A stretch of 64,000 nt of DNA, taken from a virus. Taxonomy: Duplodnaviria; Caudoviricetes. Below, one piece after another: positions 1 through 47,657 of the stretch. The notes beneath the pieces are model-generated. The model did not search any database. It was not told where the DNA came from and saw nothing but the letters and a program-made list of their open reading frames with translations. The stretch's first letter is position 1. The number at the start of each line of letters is the position of its first letter. The translations under genes were made by a program, and so were the position numbers. The stretch covers positions 76,744 through 140,743 of the IMG/VR virus record IMGVR_UViG_2908369612_000002; one strand, given 5' to 3'.

Positions 1-1143
1 ATTGAACATACAGACGGCTGCGGCATGATTCTTCCAAGCCTAAGCCGTAAAAGTTTTATGGTCAGGCTCCCTTGGGTCAAAGGATTGTTAGTCCCGTTTG
101 ATTTTCGTAAGTTTGCTGAAGAAAACAATTCATGTAAAGTAACAGACGTTTACGGGAAGGAATGGGACATTGTAAATGATGATATTCAAGTAATCTTCAC
201 TAAGAGTCAGTTCAAGATGTGGAAGTATTATTCTTCATGGGAAGAATATCAGGATAAATATAAAAAATACGGATGTTTAGGGGCAAAACTTAACGAAGAA
301 GACCCTTCTGTTGAAGGAAAGCTGACATATCAAATGCTACAAACATTAACTGATATCACAGAGGAAGAGCTAAAACAAATCAGTGATCAAACAGTTAATG
401 AAATTACTACATTGGGCACTGATAAGGAAACCATGATGAGAGTTTTAGGGGCTACAGAGAAGAATAAAAATAAGACAGCTCTTCAGGAGGCACTTCTCTT
501 ATACCCAGAGTTACTAAACGATGATCACACGAAAGAAATCATCAAGAACAAAAAGAAAAGCATGATTAAGGATGCTAAATCAGGAAAACTACTCGTAGGC
601 GGTGCTCGATACACCTATTTATGCCCTGATCTATATGCTTTTTGTGAAAAATTGTTCCTGAATATTGAAAATCCGAAGGGTTTACTATCAGGTAGCGATG
701 TCTATTGCTCTTTATACAATGAAGGTCATATTGATATCCTCCGCTCCCCTCACCTATACAGAGAACACGGAGTAAGATTGAACAAAAAAGACAAGGAAAA
801 AGAAAAGTGGTTTATTACACCTGGCGTATACACCAGCATTCATGACCCAATATCTAAGCTTTTGCAGTTTGACAATGACGGTGATAAGGCTCTAATTATT
901 TCTGATGAGTTAATCGTTAATATTGCCAAGCGCAATATGGATGACATCGTTCCCTTGTATTATGAAATGTCAGTAGCCCAGAAACAAGAGATAAATAGCA
1001 AGAACATTTATGAAGCTCTGACCCTTGCTTATGGCATCAATATTGGAGAATACAGTAACAACATCACTAAGATATGGAACAGTGACAATATAAACTTAGA
1101 TGTGATCAAGTGGCTATGCATGGAAAACAACTTCACTATCGAT
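1..1143 (+). CDS. yonO: Phage single-subunit RNA polymerase YonO, exon 1 (starts upstream of window)
   Basis: Frame open from position 1 ([10 protein letters not shown]); LRSPHL and catalytic DNDGD motifs of the double-psi beta-barrel polymerase family; ends ...NNFTID at the intron. Confidence 0.92.
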
Positions 1144-2433
1144 TAAATTTATAGTCGCGTCGCATAGCGATATGCGGATGAAAAGTCAGTGAACCTAGAA
1201 ATCTAGGGTGTGCATTCAGCGAAAAGTAGCGATAGGAAATGATCGTCAATGAGTGTGCTAACAGGGGAATTCTAACTAATACATTTTACATTTTGAACAA
1301 TGATATTTAAAACAAGGGGGTGACAAAGTGAAGTTTATAAATGAAGATGAGCTTAAATATTTGAGTGGTATATATAAGATTGAGCAGATAAGCACCGGCT
1401 TAATATATGTGGGGAAAACTAAGATGAAGTTTATTAAGCGTTACTGGCATCACACATGGAAGCTGAAAAACAATTCGCACTGTAATCGACATTTGCAGAA
1501 TGCTTGGAATAAATATGGAGAAAACGATTTCCAATTTCATGTTTTGCAAACAGTTGATCCAAACTCAGATATGAACGAAATAGAAACTCACTACATAAAT
1601 GAACTAGAGGCCTATTTAAATGGCTTTAACATGACCACCGGCGGAGAGGGCAAGAGTAATTGTAAGATGTCTGACTATACCAAAAAGATTATTGGCAAAA
1701 AGAATAGGATTAATAACATCGGAAGAAAGCTTAGTGATGAGACTAAAGCCAAAATGAGTAAAGCGAGAATTGGCAGAAAGCTCTCTCCGCAGCATAAGGA
1801 AAAGCTTTTACAATCTAGAATGAATAAAAGGCATTCGCCAGAATCTAGATTAAAGATGCGTCAGTCTCATTTAGGGTCAAAAAATAAATCCTCAAAAATA
1901 AATGAAACGAAAGCACATGAGATAAAAGTTCGATTGATTAATGGGGAAAAGATGTCTGAAGTATCAAAGTCAATGCGTGTTTCCTACCCCATCGTTAAAT
2001 CAATATTAGAGTGTAAAGTATGGAATCATATTCATGTTACTGGGTGGGACGGCTTTATTCTTAAATACAATAGCAAGAAGAAAAGCACTCTTACTCCAGA
2101 AGAAGTACTTCGTATAAGAAAACTTCTTAAAAAAGGGTTATCAGCACCCCATGTGGCAAAAATGTGTAACATAAAACCCAATGTTGTTTATGGAATTAAA
2201 CAAGGAAGAACCTATAAAAATGTGAAATGAATGTAGAATGTATTATATGAAAATCCTGTGCCAAGCGTTTACATCATGCTGGGAAGCACTTGTAAATGAA
2301 GGTGCAACGACCATCCTTTATGGAGTAATAATAAGGTGAAATTCCTTATTATGAAGCGCTGACCATCTGTCTAGCACAGATGATGATATGGTCTATTCCC
2401 TAATAAAATATCGGGAAACCGAGGGTATCAAAG
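1144..2433 (+). mobile_element. Group I intron in yonO (1290 nt)
   Basis: Exon ends in U, intron ends in G; P1 CGAU|UA..UAGUCG with U-G wobble; core elements GCTAACAGGGGAA, AATCCTGTGCCAAG, GAAGGTGCAACGAC, GATATGGTCT; splicing restores [12 protein letters not shown]. Confidence 0.92.
1328..2230 (+). CDS. Intron-encoded GIY-YIG homing endonuclease with NUMOD3 repeats
   Basis: GIYKI...IYVG motif; NUMOD3-like GRKLSDETKAKMS, GRKLSPQHKEKL, KRHSPESRLKMR; RBS AAGGGGGTGA. Confidence 0.92.
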   Translation: MKFINEDELKYLSGIYKIEQISTGLIYVGKTKMKFIKRYWHHTWKLKNNSHCNRHLQNAWNKYGENDFQFHVLQTVDPNSDMNEIETHYINELEAYLNGFNMTTGGEGKSNCKMSDYTKKIIGKKNRINNIGRKLSDETKAKMSKARIGRKLSPQHKEKLLQSRMNKRHSPESRLKMRQSHLGSKNKSSKINETKAHEIKVRLINGEKMSEVSKSMRVSYPIVKSILECKVWNHIHVTGWDGFILKYNSKKKSTLTPEEVLRIRKLLKKGLSAPHVAKMCNIKPNVVYGIKQGRTYKNVK

Positions 2434-3087
2434 TTCGCAAAAACCTTATTCATGCCTACTCGTCCTAATCATGTTGATGAGAAAATCAAAGATTACATAA
2501 AAAACAAAGTTCCCCACTTCTTCATTAATGCAAAGGATAAGGAAGATCACAGCGTTGAGCCGGTCAATGAAAGCACCGTAAACAAATTGGATTCACTTAT
2601 CCCTTCTGACAGAATTAATTTTGCTGCAGTTGCCGGGAAATTTGATTACCGTTTCTTACTTAAAAACAAAGAGATTAAACTCGATGAAGCTATTATAAAT
2701 GAATATATACGGCTTGATCGGAACAAGAAATGGATTATGAACGATGAAGATGTTAAACCTGGACAAAAACTTTATGTCTATAAGATTATCAAAGAAAGAT
2801 TGTTGAATGTACATAATGATGAACAATACGTTGCAGATGTTTTAGTAAAGCATCTGTATAAGAAGAAAAGCAAATTTAAATCGACTTTGTGGGAGTGCTT
2901 TGGAGAAAGAATTCTGCTTAACTTAGAATACAATTTCAAGCAGTTTAAAAAATGTACTGGATGCGGGAAATTATTTAAAGCTTCAACAAATAGACAGAAA
3001 AAATGCACAGATTGCTCCAAAATTGAGAGAAGGAAATACCAAAAAAACTTAATGCGAAGAAAAAGAAAAGAAACTGTTAGCATTTAG
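2434..3087 (+). CDS. yonO: YonO exon 2 with C-terminal Zn ribbon
   Basis: In frame after the intron terminal G ([11 protein letters not shown]...); CTGC...CTDC near the C-terminus. Confidence 0.9.
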
Positions 3088-3338
3088 AAAGTGTTTTGAG
3101 TCTTACTCTCCCAAGGGATACAGCGATTTTACCGAAAAAAGTTTAGTAAAAAAAGTGCCTTAATCCCTTGATATGACTGGGCTGACTGCCATTTTAGAGA
3201 TAATCGTCATAAGGGAGAAAGAAAGCTAATTTCCACATAAAAGGGTGAGTAAGTCTCCCATTTTTAAAAAAAGTACAAACGTTTCCGTAATCATACTTTA
3301 ACACAAAAATAAACAAAATCACTAGGAGGAATTTAAAC

Positions 3339-3614
3339 ATGACCAAAACAGAATTTGTTGGAGAAGTTGCAGAAAAATTAGGAGTTACTAAGAAAGAAGC
3401 TGCACCTAAAGTGGAAGCAGTATTTAATGTGGTCGTTGAAACACTAACAAAAGGTGAATCAATCAAGATTCCTGGAGTTGGAACGTTTGAAGTTCGTGAA
3501 CGTGCAGCTCGTAAAGGGAGAAATCCACAAACGGGTGAGGAAATTGATATTCCGGCTACAAAGGCACCTGCATTCAAGGCTGCTAAAGCTCTAAAAGACG
3601 CAGTGAAAGCTTAA
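3339..3614 (+). CDS. yonN: HU-like DNA-binding protein
   Basis: GTFEVRERAARKGRNPQTGEEIDIPA HU signature; RBS AGGAGG. Confidence 0.95.
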   Translation: MTKTEFVGEVAEKLGVTKKEAAPKVEAVFNVVVETLTKGESIKIPGVGTFEVRERAARKGRNPQTGEEIDIPATKAPAFKAAKALKDAVKA

Positions 3615-3642
3615 TAAAGTATCCTTCCTCCCTTTTTCCCTA

Positions 3643-3781
3643 GAATGCGGTGGCGAAAAAGGTAAACGCGTAGATCGAGGTGGTATGACTGACCTTCGGG
3701 AATCTCGAGGCCAACCTTCAAGAGAAGACTAATAGTTGGCGAATTGTCATCCATGAGAGGTGCAAATCCTCTCCCGCATTC
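3643..3781 (+). ncRNA. tRNA-like RNA with an enlarged anticodon domain
   Basis: 8-bp acceptor stem GAATGCGG/CCGCATTC; D-arm-like TGGCGAAAAAGGTAAACGC; T-arm-like GAGAGGTGCAAATCCTCTC; about 85-nt structured middle region. Confidence 0.65.
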
Positions 3782-4482
3782 ATCTCCAGGTTAATTAATT
3801 AGAGTTCTTTTATTGATGGCATGGGGGTGTCGTCAATAATAAGCTGTTTACTGATATGTGGGATATCAGTTCTCGGCTAATATTCATTTATTTGAGGACT
3901 TGGAATGCCAGGGATTCGAATAAATGAATATTAGCGGGGTATGCCCCTTCGTGGATTAAGCTTTTTCTAAACATGTCTATTCTCACTTAATGCGGTGTAT
4001 TGCTTCGGCTTACACTTATGTAAGGCAAAATGCGTCTTCCTTCCCTTTAAATAATGCCCTTGTAAGCAGTGATGCTTACCATGCGGTCATCAAAACTTTT
4101 TCCGGGTTAGCGAGGCTTTTTGTAATTACATACCCTCGTAAAATAAGTGAAATGGTTTTTGGGCGCTTGATCACCGCTCCCATTTCATGGAACAGGTTTA
4201 TACCGGTCTTGCCTTTTCAATTTCACTAATAAACACATTCACTATTTTATTCGCTACGTCTCTTTCAATGTTCTGAACGGAGACTCACCTTTCCCATGCA
4301 CATACCTCCTTACACGGGTCAGAGAAAACTGTGCAAAATAAATGGCGAGCGTTTGAGACGCTTTGTTTCTCAATAAGGCGTGTAACCTAACAAGAGCATT
4401 AAAAAATGCCATTGAGAAGGCTTATTAGGGTCTTTCCTTTTCAAGTTATTTTTTCTTGACTCTCGGACTTTAAGGGTGAGCA

Positions 4483-4562
4483 GTTGGCAAGCAACATAAA
4501 AACTTGATACATTTTCCGGACTACGAGAGCTGGACGTTGGCGAGCAACATAAAAACTTGATA
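4483..4562 (+). repeat. 27-nt direct repeat GTTGGCRAGCAACATAAAAACTTGATA, two copies (partial third at 4571)
   Basis: Copies at 4483-4509 and 4536-4562, one mismatch. Confidence 0.9.
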
Positions 4563-5136
4563 TATAAGATGTTGGCAATAGGAACTTTAAACACATTCCA
4601 GAAAGTGTGTATTATTTGTTGTCATAGCTCATCTGCCAGGTGTAGAAGGAGAATCCGGTTTTCGCACAGCGATTACCGGTTTTTATGCTCATGTACCATG
4701 AAGTACAAGGAGTTCCTGAAGATGTCATTATGACGTCTTTTGTTATTTTCGCCTTACTTATAGTTTGTCGACTACAAAGGTTTCAGTCGCTGAACCCGTA
4801 ATCAGCGTATTCCCTGTCGATCTGAAGGCTTGCGTCCCTACGTGAGCTACTGATGTAGGTGAGATGGGGTTAGAATGTAATCAGAACAAGGCCATCTAAA
4901 TCGTTAGAAGGTCTTTTTGTGCTTGCGTTTTACTTTATGAATCAGCCGGAATGTGCTTACGAGCCTTCCGGTACGCAAGTTATCAATAGTCTCCTTCGGG
5001 CGTTTCCCCAACGCCTATCCGACTTATCTTTTCATCTCCTTTATATCCCCTTTTCGGACGTTACCGATGCTTCGGATCATCGGGCTTCCGAAGGAGCTTA
5101 TTGAACGTAAATAAAACACATATTGGAGGAATTTAA

Positions 5137-5328
5137 ATGGCAAGCAAAAAAGTACATCAAATTAATGTAAAAGGCTATTTTGATATGGACGTAATGGAAG
5201 TTACTGAACAAACTAAAGAAGCTGAATATACATATGATTTCAAAGAAATTCTTTCAGAGTTTAACGGCAAAAATGTTTCAATTACCGTAAAAGAAGAAAA
5301 TGAACTTCCTGTTAAAGACGTAGAGTAA
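5137..5328 (+). CDS. yonK: YonK family small phage protein
   Basis: 63 aa, RBS GGGAGG, SPbeta synteny. Confidence 0.85.
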   Translation: MASKKVHQINVKGYFDMDVMEVTEQTKEAEYTYDFKEILSEFNGKNVSITVKEENELPVKDVE

Positions 5329-5340
5329 GGCGGTGACTAA

Positions 5341-6558
5341 ATGATCGATCCTATTCAAACAAAGCGTCACTCAGATGAAAATCTTAAAGAATGGAAAATT
5401 AGAATTTGCTCTAATAAAGACATCTATAATCTTAATTGGGAAGAAATCAAAGAATTAATAAACAAAGAAACCGGCGAATCTAAAGGCGAATCAGCTTATA
5501 GAAAATGGTTCAACAACTTCATTGAGGGGGTTGAATACCAAAAAGAAATGTCAGCTGAATCAAACTCTTCTCTCCTAGAACTGGAAATGAAAAAGGTTGA
5601 AATCATGGAAGAGAGAAAGAAGCTTCAAGCTGTAAAGCATGAAATACATAAAAGCACACGTGTCAAAGGACGAACAGAGCTTCTATATGAAAATGTAACT
5701 GAAGCAATTGAGAAAGTAGGCACTCTTCCTCCGCCTTCCTTCTATCCATTGAAAAGAAGCGAAACAAAAAGAGCTGCAGTGCTAGGATTTGGAGATGAAC
5801 ATTTCGGGAAGCAATTTAAAAGCAACAACAATGAATACAACGAACAAATATATCTACAACGTATGAATCAAATTCTTTCTGAAACTATTGAGTACATTCA
5901 CAAAGAAAATTTAGATGAGCTGGTCGTGTTAAATGGTGCTGATAGTGTTGAAGGTATGGCATTGCGCGTATCGCAATTAACTGCCCTTCAGTACGGTTTT
6001 ATTGATCAAGTGATTAAATACTCTAGGTACAAAGCTGAATGGCTTTTAGAGCTTTCTAAGCACGTCAAAATTAAGTACATACATATCCCTTCTGCAAATC
6101 ATACTGAACTAAGATTACATAATACAAATCGCTCGGAAATGCCTAAAGAAGATGTAGAGCGTATTATCGCTACTTATATCCATGACGTACTCAAAGACAA
6201 TGAGCGTATTGAAGTTCCTTTATACGACGAAGGAATCGTAGATTTTAAATTACTTGAATTTGAAATTGTTGCTTGTCACGGACACCAGATTAAAAACAAA
6301 AAGAACGCTATTCGTGACATCTCACAGATGAAACGAAAATTCTACGATTACATGTACATCTCCCACTTCCACCACGGGAATATGCTCACTGTAGGTGAAG
6401 CAACCACTCATAATATCCAAGTTATACAACTCCCTTCCGTTATGGGTTCCGATGAATACAGTGACAGCTTAATGACAGGTGCAAAAGCTGGAGCAAACCT
6501 ATCAATTTATGAGTCTGGCAAAGGTCGGACTATTCAATACGATTACATATTAAATTAA
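5341..6558 (+). CDS. yonJ: Calcineurin-like metallophosphoesterase/nuclease
   Basis: DEHFG, GAD, ANH, HGH, SHFH motifs; synteny. Confidence 0.8.
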   Translation: MIDPIQTKRHSDENLKEWKIRICSNKDIYNLNWEEIKELINKETGESKGESAYRKWFNNFIEGVEYQKEMSAESNSSLLELEMKKVEIMEERKKLQAVKHEIHKSTRVKGRTELLYENVTEAIEKVGTLPPPSFYPLKRSETKRAAVLGFGDEHFGKQFKSNNNEYNEQIYLQRMNQILSETIEYIHKENLDELVVLNGADSVEGMALRVSQLTALQYGFIDQVIKYSRYKAEWLLELSKHVKIKYIHIPSANHTELRLHNTNRSEMPKEDVERIIATYIHDVLKDNERIEVPLYDEGIVDFKLLEFEIVACHGHQIKNKKNAIRDISQMKRKFYDYMYISHFHHGNMLTVGEATTHNIQVIQLPSVMGSDEYSDSLMTGAKAGANLSIYESGKGRTIQYDYILN

Positions 6559-47050: not shown

Positions 47051-47402
47051 AACGCCCAGTACTTTATTAAGCTGGGCCCTGTTTCATATTTAAATTGAAT
47101 TTTTATAAGCATTAATAGCTTCGTTTCGCAACAGCATATTATTTTTGTTAACCATGCCTAAATTGTAAGCTTTTTTGATAAGCATCTTTTCCATTTTTAC
47201 ACATGTTAAGTATCGACAATCACTCAAATGATTTAATAAGAATACAAAAAAGAACCTGCAAATTGCAAGTTCTTTTCACGTTGGCAATTTATTTCGTTTT
47301 TGTAACGACAGGTTCATTACTCTGTTGTATAATATTTCCTGTACATTAAGTTTGCTCACTCAAGGGAGTCTTGCTCATCCCCTAAGGAAAGGGGGTGATG
47401 CT

Positions 47403-47486
47403 ATGTCAACATTCCAGGCATTAATGTTAATGCTTGCATTCGGGTCTTTTATAATCGCCCTGTTGACGTATATAAATAAAAAATAG
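47403..47486 (+). CDS. Type I toxin, BsrE/BsrH family (27 aa, not in the ORF track)
   Basis: MSTFQALMLMLAFGSFIIALLTYINKK; RBS GGGGGTGA; TATAAT at 47328; terminator at about 47571-47608. Confidence 0.9.
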   Translation: MSTFQALMLMLAFGSFIIALLTYINKK

Positions 47487-47657
47487 ACCTCCCTTGAGCC
47501 TCAGAACCTGAAGGGTTAGGTCTACCTAGAAACCACATCGAGCAAGCCCCCTGAGGGCAGCTTTTTGTACAGAGCCGGGGTGTTGGCGCACCTCGGTCTT
47601 TTTATTTTATGCACTCCAATTAAACAAATGCTCAAATAATTATATAATTGTATCATT
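47480..47657 (-). ncRNA. Putative antisense antitoxin RNA (SR5-like); ends approximate
   Basis: Convergent sigma-A promoter TTGCAA-N18-TATAAT (47693-47664) overlapping the toxin 3' UTR. Confidence 0.65.

Follow-up and report, generated by a model that had tools for sequence, protein, structure and literature searches.

The window analysed here is a 64,000-nucleotide (nt) stretch, positions 76,744 to 140,743, of IMG/VR record IMGVR_UViG_2908369612_000002, and is part of a 140,743-base provirus of the SPbeta kind. SPbeta is a model temperate phage, the late genes of which are read by an unusual single-chain polymerase, YonO. Three genes lie in order on the + strand of the window, namely an HU gene (yonN-like, 3339-3614), yonK (5137-5328) and yonJ (5341-6558), and the first two enclose a gap of about 1520 nt. 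A preliminary description of this DNA had proposed that the gap encodes a 1.5-kb structured non-coding RNA at the head of the late operon. Our analysis indicates that the gap consists of RNA modules that share one orientation and fold separately, an array which in place and build appears to resemble a phage tRNA-gene array. As judged from sequence comparison, the main modules are kept at the base-pairing level on the + strand and are shuffled among SPbeta-like phages, and some of them are found as solitary elements in unrelated phages.

The preliminary description had found no credible gene between HU and yonK, and this was confirmed. The longest open reading frame (ORF) in 3615-5136 comprises 79 amino acids, and none of the six interval ORFs tested matched Pfam. 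The 79-amino-acid ORF was open over its full length in none of the 72 tblastn matches among the collected loci, and stops were present in 56 of them. A minus-strand ORF of 52 amino acids (4254-4412), which was open in 32 of 65 matches, runs counter to a non-coding reading; these match counts (72 and 65) include duplicate copies of one contig. The start ATG of this ORF falls in a helix strand (4408-4413) that reads CTC in four of five sequence types, and the pairing of this helix is preserved by compensating changes despite the replacement. A protein-coding gene in the gap was therefore rejected on the basis of the ORF survey, the tblastn comparison of relatives and Pfam. A real tRNA or tmRNA was likewise rejected, as ARAGORN reported neither in the window; the Rfam tRNA model (RF00005) gave no match in 3300-5400 at E<=10. 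The only Rfam family above threshold in the interval was DUF3800-VIII. The preliminary description had named a full match to a characterised Rfam family as a reason to abandon its proposal, and the match found extends over only 66 of the approximately 1520 nt. Among the sources returned by a literature search, the interval is mentioned only in one sentence, in the portion of Forrest 2017 available to us.

The gap differs from the late genes in composition, with a G+C content of 41.9% versus 36.0% and an AT skew of -0.10 versus +0.12. When 120-nt segments were slid along the + strand, the mean folding z score was -1.56 in the gap (n=35) and -0.17 in the flanks (n=74). The hairpins listed in the preliminary description lie where it placed them, their inverted repeats were recovered (arms 3876-3895 / 3916-3935 and 4983-4999 / 5088-5104), and most of them fold far better than shuffled sequences, with z scores of -2.5 to -11. 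The proposed + strand orientation is supported as well, because G-U cells (one cell being one pair in one copy) far outnumber A-C cells in every module: the ratios in the helix sets are 50:1, 100:9, 37:6, 20:11 and 8:1. The features of the gap are as follows.

3643-3781, + strand: tRNA-like element directly after HU, a frame with a replaced anticodon domain
3643-3650 / 3774-3781, + strand: acceptor-like stem of the tRNA-like frame
3653-3655 / 3667-3669, + strand: D-arm-like stem, with GG in the D loop
3755-3760 / 3768-3773, + strand: T-arm-like stem, with the 7-nt loop UGCAAAU
3810-3822 / 3827-3839 and 3850-3857 / 3863-3870, + strand: two short hairpins, from an alignment of relatives
3872-3940, + strand: long "type 1" hairpin with a 20-base-pair stem (3876-3895 / 3916-3935), arms of 20 nt, 95% complementary
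3987-4450, + strand: M4 RNA of about 460 nt, consisting of a covarying two-hairpin head, a middle and a pseudoknotted 3' domain
3987-4057, + strand: M4 head, with H1 (3995-4015, UUCG tetraloop) and H2 (4018-4046)
4058-4285, + strand: M4 middle, four more hairpins
4298-4442, + strand: M4b, the 3' domain of M4, five helices including a pseudoknot
4298-4302 / 4330-4334, + strand: helix P1 of M4b, from covariation
4310-4316 / 4379-4385, + strand: pseudoknot of M4b, two compensatory pairs
4341-4346 / 4408-4413, + strand: helix P5 of M4b, from covariation
4353-4358 / 4368-4373, + strand: helix P4 of M4b, from covariation
4414-4420 / 4436-4442, + strand: helix P6 of M4b, the terminal hairpin of the domain
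4464-4565, + strand: variable spacer with a 49-nt direct repeat (4464-4512 / 4517-4565, 78% identity), present in 6 of 34 loci
4625-4745, + strand: set of four hairpins, the last of which (4718-4740 plus a U-rich run) is terminator-like
4788-4807, + strand: hairpin 5' of DUF3800-VIII, with the conserved loop AACCCGUAAU
4808-4873, + strand: DUF3800-VIII (RF03075), 49.7 bits versus a gathering score of 40.2, model positions 1-64 of 64
4921-4980, + strand: hairpin formed by GCUUGCGU / ACGCAAGU and enclosing CCGGAAU / (A)UUCCGG
4985-5104, + strand: conserved leader before the yonK ribosome-binding site, with a long-range helix (4985-4999 / 5088-5102) and three hairpins
5000-5014, 5018-5058 and 5064-5083, + strand: the inner hairpins of the leader, enclosed by the long-range helix

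The comparison set consisted of 34 loci, 31 around yonJ relatives and three phage records. In this set, blastn splits the window interval into sharp-bordered blocks that are combined differently among relatives, as listed below.

3619-3778: present in 5-6 of 34 loci
3779-3891: present in about 13 of 34 loci
3987-4450: present in about 20 of 34 loci
4451-4624: present in 6 of 34 loci
4625-4890: present in 17-22 of 34 loci
4992-5136: present in 32 of 34 loci

In addition, 25 SPbeta-like phage records match the interval in pieces, and the spacing between HU and yonK ranges from about 1.1 to 2.7 kb in the 27 loci in which both genes were found. Matches outside this group are confined to parts of the array: 4303-4398 was matched in 14 Herelleviridae-type records, 4814-4869 in seven Brevibacillus phage records, and 4754-4809 in phage KLEB27-3. 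Because the modules are present or absent independently and some are solitary in unrelated phages, the gap does not correspond to one 1.5-kb RNA. The modular make-up fits the cluster of processed RNAs that the preliminary description had offered as an alternative; the processing that it implied is still a prediction. In licheniformis-type relatives, the interval appears also to contain a protein gene. Three contigs labelled Streptomyces sp. and Paenibacillus sp. (L037, L039 and L040) contain an exact 40-nt match to the SPbeta-type leader together with further modules, and are likely to represent Bacillus phage DNA in those assemblies.

With regard to M4, both its head and its 3' domain show covariation in counts that, as for all pair counts given here, used unique sequences only. 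In 43 copies of the head, 90.3% of the cells are paired, 8 of 16 pairs show compensatory changes (seven of the eight in H2), and none of 500 shuffles reached the score. The UUCG tetraloop of H1, at about 4004, is one of four C(UUCG)G motifs pointed out in the preliminary description and the only one of them to prove a covariation-supported tetraloop; the motif at about 4993 is a strand of the long-range helix instead. The conserved loop of H2 is GAUGCGUCU, and the window copy reads AAUGCGUCU. This copy has two unpaired cells in H2 and the loop AAUGCG where the consensus is GAUGCG, and its folding z score (3987-4057) is +0.3 (+0.28), no better than that of shuffled sequences, which leaves covariation as the support for the head. 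A covariance model of the head (R1) scored 79.7 bits for the single copy that it found in the window, and it also had matches in 8 of 91 host-family genomes.

In M4b, 45 copies belonging to five sequence types have 97.7% of their cells paired, versus 29-55% when the partners are slid, and 18 of 31 pairs are compensatory, a score reached by none of 500 shuffles. Over the tRNA-like frame, the head and M4b together, slid-partner controls gave 29-65% pairing. As in the head, the support for M4b is covariation, since its folding z score (4298-4447) is an unremarkable -0.8. No match to M4b was found in Rfam at E<=10. For the middle of M4, MAFFT and RNAalifold applied to 19 copies covering 3987-4230 predicted 43 pairs, of which 14 are compensatory, 9 show one-sided changes and 21 have at least one break; in licheniformis-type copies, a different hairpin substitutes for one of those of the middle. 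The hairpin at about 4172-4218, the last of the middle, and that at 4414-4442 have a common stem (GARAAGG / CCUUYUC) and the loop motif UUAU..GGUCUU, and a related GUCUUA loop is present in a module of about 210 nt that is absent from the window. This repeated hairpin may be a repeated binding site. Mimicry of the anti-Shine-Dalgarno sequence, or avoidance of Shine-Dalgarno sequences, was also considered for the leader and rejected, as neither the count of GGAGG (0 versus 0.8 expected) nor that of CCTCC (2 versus 0.8) is significant; that the ACCUCC loop of M4b is ACCUUC in pumilus-type copies also speaks against such mimicry.

The tRNA-like element exhibits a 7-base-pair acceptor stem, a D arm with a GG loop and a T arm with a 7-nt loop, and an 85-nt branched domain (3670-3754) stands where the anticodon and variable arms would be. 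Its folding z score (3643-3784) is -2.6. A pattern search of the loci yielded 20 unique copies, all of which have the 5' acceptor/D-arm part and the 3' T-arm/acceptor part in common, while the centre varies from 27 to 95 nt and belongs to at least six wholly different types. In the three helices of the frame, 98.4% of the cells are paired (97.9% for the seven pairs of the acceptor-like helix), 4 of 16 pairs are compensatory, and no shuffle out of 500 reached the score. The centre of the window type, known from nine copies, is 98.9% paired, with 5 of 41 pairs compensatory, all of them through the single divergent copy L057. Of these five pairs, two are in a helix crossed by a second helix, an arrangement suggestive of either a pseudoknot or alternative folding. 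A hairpin predicted in the centre by RNAalifold (3695-3709) was rejected, because one of its pairs is broken in L057 and the crossing helix (3675-3679 / 3704-3708) has two compensatory pairs. In other relatives, tRNA-like frames follow M4a or M4b rather than HU.

A related class of RNAs is treated in a preprint (Wang 2026), the text of which, as far as available, describes skipping-rope as a tRNA mimic processed to a stable species, and defines a tLRNA signature comprising an acceptor-like helix of 5-8 base pairs, an abutting T-stem-loop (typically of 5 base pairs with a 7-nt loop), a UUYRANY-like T loop and an L shape in three dimensions. The window element shows three of the four sequence-level features given in that part of the preprint. 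Its T stem (6 base pairs, 7-nt loop) abuts the acceptor with no intervening nucleotide, and its T loop, UGCAAAU, fits UUYRANY at six of seven positions, the G at the second position being invariant in all 20 copies. The skipping-rope model (RF02924) gave no match in 3300-5400 of the window at E<=10 and none in SPBc2 (L001) at E<=0.05. It matched L002 and L009, two of the nine loci searched at an E-value threshold, with 31.3 bits, which is under the gathering score of 36.7. The position after HU is annotated as "skipping-rope" in phage Goe14, and a skipping-rope-like element also stands there in L009.

Downstream of this element, the first short hairpin has a folding z score of -5.4 (3806-3841), and in 12 unique relatives most of the changes in its stem allow G-U pairing on the + strand, while two variants show breaks (alignment by eye). 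The type 1 hairpin has the best z score, -11.0 (3872-3940), and its 20 pairs in 12 unique copies comprise 183 Watson-Crick, 50 G-U, 1 A-C and 6 other cells. Its paralogue, the "type 2" hairpin, is the place in SPbeta where the YonO-dependent transcript begins; in the window, the type 1 hairpin alone matches the start-site motif, with two mismatches. The start of this late transcript was mapped in SPbeta, according to the passages of Forrest 2017 at hand, and falls within the homologous interval, which bears out the placement of the gap at the head of the late operon in the preliminary description. The SPBc2 interval (L001:3875-5555) corresponds with 100% identity to 2225616-2227296 of the one-contig genome G041, and if the numbering of G041 is that of the paper, the start reported there is position 4257 of L001, an A at the sixth position of the type 2 hairpin's 5' arm, 1,299 nt upstream of yonK. 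As this start is in the stem of a long hairpin, the SPbeta RNA would begin base-paired. Of the 34 loci, 27 have the type 2 hairpin, at a distance of 155-185 nt upstream of the head, and distant pumilus- and licheniformis-type phages are among them. The stem of this hairpin contains 100 G-U versus 9 A-C cells, and the hairpin is therefore selected as RNA. Because the surroundings of the start are alike in both hairpin types, over about 11 nt upstream and 17 nt downstream, A3879 was taken as the equivalent position in the window. That A3879 is the late start in this prophage is a guess by paralogy.

Several side observations concern these hairpins and the polymerase gene. In L016 (2155-2230) and also in L110 (1449-1522), a hybrid hairpin combines a type 1 5' arm with a type 2 3' arm, as if recombination between paralogous hairpins had deleted the intervening DNA. 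In the window, yonO (1-3087; 76012-79800 of the provirus) is in two pieces, of which the first, residues 1-627, runs to 1149 and the second, residues 625-834, starts at 2431. The 1.28-kb insert contains a 300-amino-acid ORF (1328-2230), the sequence of which resembles a GIY-YIG homing endonuclease, and a weak group I intron match (2178-2415, 19.5 bits versus a gathering score of 50, E = 0.032). In the annotation of phage BUCT083, a GIY-YIG nuclease family protein likewise stands just upstream of a C-terminal YonO piece. This insert probably represents an intron of the RNA polymerase gene of the phage. Elsewhere in the window, a BsrG RNA (47342-47596, RF01412, 217 bits) marks a type I toxin-antitoxin locus typical of SPbeta.

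Between M4 and yonK, each unit of the 49-nt repeat comprises a sigma-A-like pair (TTGGCR, a spacer of 17-18 nt and an AT-rich hexamer) and a small hairpin, GUUG-GCRAG-CAAC. A promoter-like site falls at 4484-4513; such sites number 6, versus 5.6 in shuffled sequences. In the four-hairpin set, 24 copies gave 33 predicted pairs, with 1 compensatory, 10 one-sided (mostly to G-U) and 6 with a break. The hairpin before DUF3800-VIII (z score of -3.8 for 4783-4812) keeps its loop, but its stem differs in licheniformis-type copies and in phage KLEB27-3 (alignment by eye; RNAalifold gave no consensus pairs). Of the 34 related loci, 18 have DUF3800-VIII too, as does Brevibacillus phage Jimmer1. The DUF3800 RNA motifs were defined by nearness to DUF3800 genes, according to the accessible part of Weinberg 2017. 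A search for a DUF3800 gene (PF12686) gave no match in the 140,743-base provirus, while control genomes gave matches, so the RNA is carried here without its usual protein neighbour. The hairpin at 4921-4980 has a z score of -3.2 (4919-4982), and in 20 copies its 16 predicted pairs include 1 compensatory, 7 one-sided and 4 with a break.

The leader before yonK (z score of -2.5) was found by blastn in 32 of 34 loci, including four whose YonJ is 71-79% identical (L024, L025, L033 and L036), and not in L027 and L028, both 71-72% YonJ relatives. In 39 unique copies, its long-range helix is 98.4% paired, with one compensatory pair. The helix TTCGGA / TCCGAA of the preliminary description does pair in these copies (95.7%), but it shows no compensatory change and competes with the longer helix. 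The two competing helices make a switch possible.

Some modules are found in tRNA arrays and in unrelated phages. ARAGORN identified a tRNA-Trp(cca) in six licheniformis-type SPbeta-relative loci (L018, L026, L029, L070, L078 and L086), and in the first three of these it is placed between HU and yonK (at 1998-2069 in L018). The head motif stands among five to six tRNA genes in L054 (2569-2648) and L080 (1252-1331), which are contigs of 153-156 kb. In phage SIOphi, a compact M4, with the head nearly abutting the 3' domain (L041, about 2866-3140), occupies a 1.47-kb gap, 467 nt before the portal gene, and a terminator-like hairpin with a T-run lies between the two (about 3486-3512, by eye). In L095, a GC-rich M4b follows a helix-turn-helix regulator gene, 3.3 kb upstream of HNH, TerS and TerL genes. 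In three phage types (SPbeta, SIOphi and the L095 type), the genes downstream of M4b are thus late, packaging or structural ones.

Based on these observations, we consider it fairly probable that the gap is a transcribed and processed non-coding RNA array that mostly constitutes the leader of the late operon. We are more confident of one part of this picture, the modular + strand RNA array, and less confident of another, the late start site in this prophage. The late start of SPbeta precedes most of the array, which thus forms the late leader there. In the window, late transcription would begin at or near the paralogous hairpin, at about 3879, so that 3879-5136 would form a structured leader of 1.26 kb. 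The 5'-terminal hairpin and the domain before yonK would shield the RNA ends from 5'-exonuclease, and the leader would be cut into stable small RNAs. The tRNA-like element would belong to the HU transcript and act as a tRNA-shaped scaffold carrying a hypervariable "cargo" domain in place of the anticodon arm, and its acceptor/T-arm/elbow half could recruit tRNA-processing enzymes.

A number of points weigh against this picture. Transcription of the array in this prophage is a prediction from sequence, as is the processing of every module by RNase P or Z. The covariation counts come from related sequences and from structures derived from those same sequences, and are thereby inflated. The yonK leader, the 4625-4745 set and the 4921-4980 hairpin have only one compensatory pair each. 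The module of about 210 nt that contains the type 2 hairpin and the mapped SPbeta start, present in the closest relative (L006), matches nowhere in the 140.7-kb provirus (window 3892-3990 compared with L006:1990-2210). The passages of Forrest 2017 at hand report a start for SPbeta at the second hairpin only, and the start in the window is assigned by paralogy; L014 has neither type of hairpin. The mapping also assumes that the numbering of G041 is that of the reference used in the paper. Moreover, the 5' end was identified as such because it resisted a 5'-monophosphate exonuclease (Forrest 2017, in the same passages), and a strong 5' hairpin could make a processed end resistant too. The window head is off consensus and folds like shuffled sequences, and decay may be under way in the 5' part of the array. 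The missing 210-nt module and the deviant head could reflect either decay of the late promoter or use of the paralogous hairpin instead. Finally, the SIOphi RNA may be a separate gene rather than a leader.

Among the other explanations, the one that survives best is compatible with the array reading and concerns function. The RNAs would act in trans as a counter-defence cassette, as decoys or inhibitors of tRNA-directed host immunity, with anticodon nucleases, CCA-tail-cutting nucleases and DUF3800-type sensors as proposed targets. We give this only a modest chance. It would account for the tRNA look-alike of the window, the real tRNA in relatives and the skipping-rope-like element of Goe14 and L009, as well as for a DUF3800-VIII RNA in a provirus lacking a DUF3800 gene, and the hypervariable centre of the tRNA-like frame, with its six or more types, fits an arms race. 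DUF3800, skipping-rope and drum RNAs are tied to the same gene neighbourhoods in the accessible part of Weinberg 2017, and the passages seen of a preprint (Yan 2026) present a TPR-DUF3800 protein as an immune nuclease activated by cleaved aminoacyl-tRNA tails. Against this, the case is entirely circumstantial: none of the modules has been linked to a defence system, a target or a phenotype, the skipping-rope matches are under the gathering score, in two of nine loci and none in the window, and the Adt1 family has a TPR domain, a tie to DUF3800 RNA motifs being absent from those passages of Yan 2026. A more specific version, to which we assign a slimmer chance still, is that phages of the SPbeta type open their late operon with an exchangeable set of RNAs, some tRNA-shaped and some DUF3800-associated, among them a natural "tRNA scaffold" with a hypervariable cargo domain and a pseudoknotted RNA common to different phage families. 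Made at late onset, these RNAs would be decoys or inhibitors against immunity that senses or cuts tRNAs, and the phages would swap modules against defences. Counter-defence is, in our opinion, the most interesting open reading.

It is improbable that the leader acts in cis on the 38-kb late operon, whether through processive antitermination or by blocking Rho. RNA antiterminators are known, HK022 put and EAR among them, but these families gave no match in the interval at E<=10 in Rfam. The position at the head of a very long operon, the Rho exposure expected of a 1.3-kb untranslated leader, the terminator-like hairpin within it (4718-4740) and the three phage types in which M4b precedes late, packaging or structural genes would all suit such a role. 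However, M4b accompanies an expected host polymerase in SIOphi and the L095 type and YonO in SPbeta, and one RNA acting on both is unlikely, which makes antitermination less likely. In the passages available, Forrest 2017 describes YonO as devoid of most conserved domains of multi-subunit polymerases and the beta flap as required for hairpin-dependent pausing and termination. The head inside tRNA arrays, the terminator-like hairpin between the SIOphi copy and the portal gene, and the free gain and loss of modules also argue against it.

We attach little credence to the idea that the features act as DNA (a YonO or host promoter, operators, a cruciform or a packaging site) and that the RNA folds are incidental. 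The mapped start in the homologous interval does lie at a long inverted repeat, the 49-nt direct repeats do carry sigma-A-like hexamers, and conservation upstream of the start fades within about 6-11 nt, so that recognition may lie in the hairpin itself. Nevertheless, G-U cells outnumber A-C cells in all helix sets (100:9 for the hairpin of the start site), and both this asymmetry and the compensating changes in 18 of 31 M4b pairs, including the pseudoknot, are RNA signatures, and promoter-like sites are no commoner than in shuffled sequences (6 versus 5.6). A hairpin serving as a promoter can, moreover, coexist with an RNA role. A packaging site was rejected, as the part of a preprint (Kohm 2021) considered here puts the SPbeta packaging start between yonR and yonP.

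It is equally doubtful that the modules are decayed remnants of tRNA genes or mobile elements without present function. A tRNA-like frame that is not recognised as a tRNA, the lost 210-nt module, the deviant head and the L016 hybrid hairpin, which shows recombination between repeats, would be expected of such remnants; compensating changes keep pairing across groups whose YonJ proteins are 71-79% identical and across unrelated phage families, and the leader before yonK is as well conserved as the neighbouring genes, which speaks against decay. The single large ornate RNA of the GOLLD/ROOL kind that the preliminary description had entertained is barely credible: size, prophage setting, nearness to tRNAs (as in the relevant part of Weinberg 2017) and many hairpins in a row on one strand recall those RNAs, but Rfam gave no match at E<=10, blocks come and go over 34 loci with single modules in other phages, interval length is far from constant (about 1.1 to 2.7 kb in 27 loci), and no pairing between modules was noticed, though no systematic search was made for it.

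The array reading has several consequences. At least three structured RNA families, namely the head, M4b and the tRNA-like frame with its variable centre, are apparently absent from Rfam 15. One of them, M4b, precedes packaging or structural genes in three unrelated phage types. Within one and the same interval, related phages have either of two distinct tRNA-like RNAs or real tRNAs. The SPbeta start lies at the foot of a conserved hairpin that has a paralogue, which is a testable lead to what YonO recognises. The locus is also tied, through the sources cited above as far as they were available, to bacterial tRNA mimics and to DUF3800 immune nucleases that sense tRNA fragments, and it offers a tractable Bacillus system for asking what such RNAs do.

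When compared with known systems, the gap shares with GOLLD and ROOL its non-coding nature, its presence in prophages and its nearness to tRNAs (Weinberg 2017, in the part available), but it is modular and mosaic, whereas those RNAs have a single conserved fold. It resembles HK022 put and EAR in presenting a structured element at the 5' end of a long operon, although there is no sequence or model match and the polymerase, YonO, differs. Bacillus mRNAs can have 5'-terminal stabiliser hairpins, and by analogy the late leader would also have a structured 5' end. DUF3800-VIII is matched end to end by its model and is phage-borne, as in Jimmer1; it covers only 66 nt of the gap, and the family was defined near DUF3800 genes (Weinberg 2017, same part), while this provirus has none. 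Like the skipping-rope and tLRNA mimics, the window element has a T-arm-like hairpin (7-nt loop) that directly abuts its acceptor-like helix, lacks an anticodon arm and varies in its lower half; the likeness extends to place, since skipping-rope-like elements stand after HU in Goe14 and L009. Unlike skipping-rope, the window element keeps a true-looking D arm along with the T arm, has a hypervariable centre and is unmatched by the skipping-rope model. Phage tRNA gene arrays are, like the gap, co-oriented, ORF-free runs of small structured RNAs, and are linked to it by the tRNA-Trp in the same interval of relatives and by the head among tRNA genes in L054 and L080. In contrast to such arrays, no tRNA is recognisable in the window, most modules have shapes other than that of a tRNA, and in SPbeta most of the array is downstream of the late-operon start. 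In engineered tRNA scaffolds for RNA expression, a foreign RNA domain replaces the anticodon arm, and the acceptor, D and T arms are retained for folding and processing. The window element has the same build, and would be a natural case of it.

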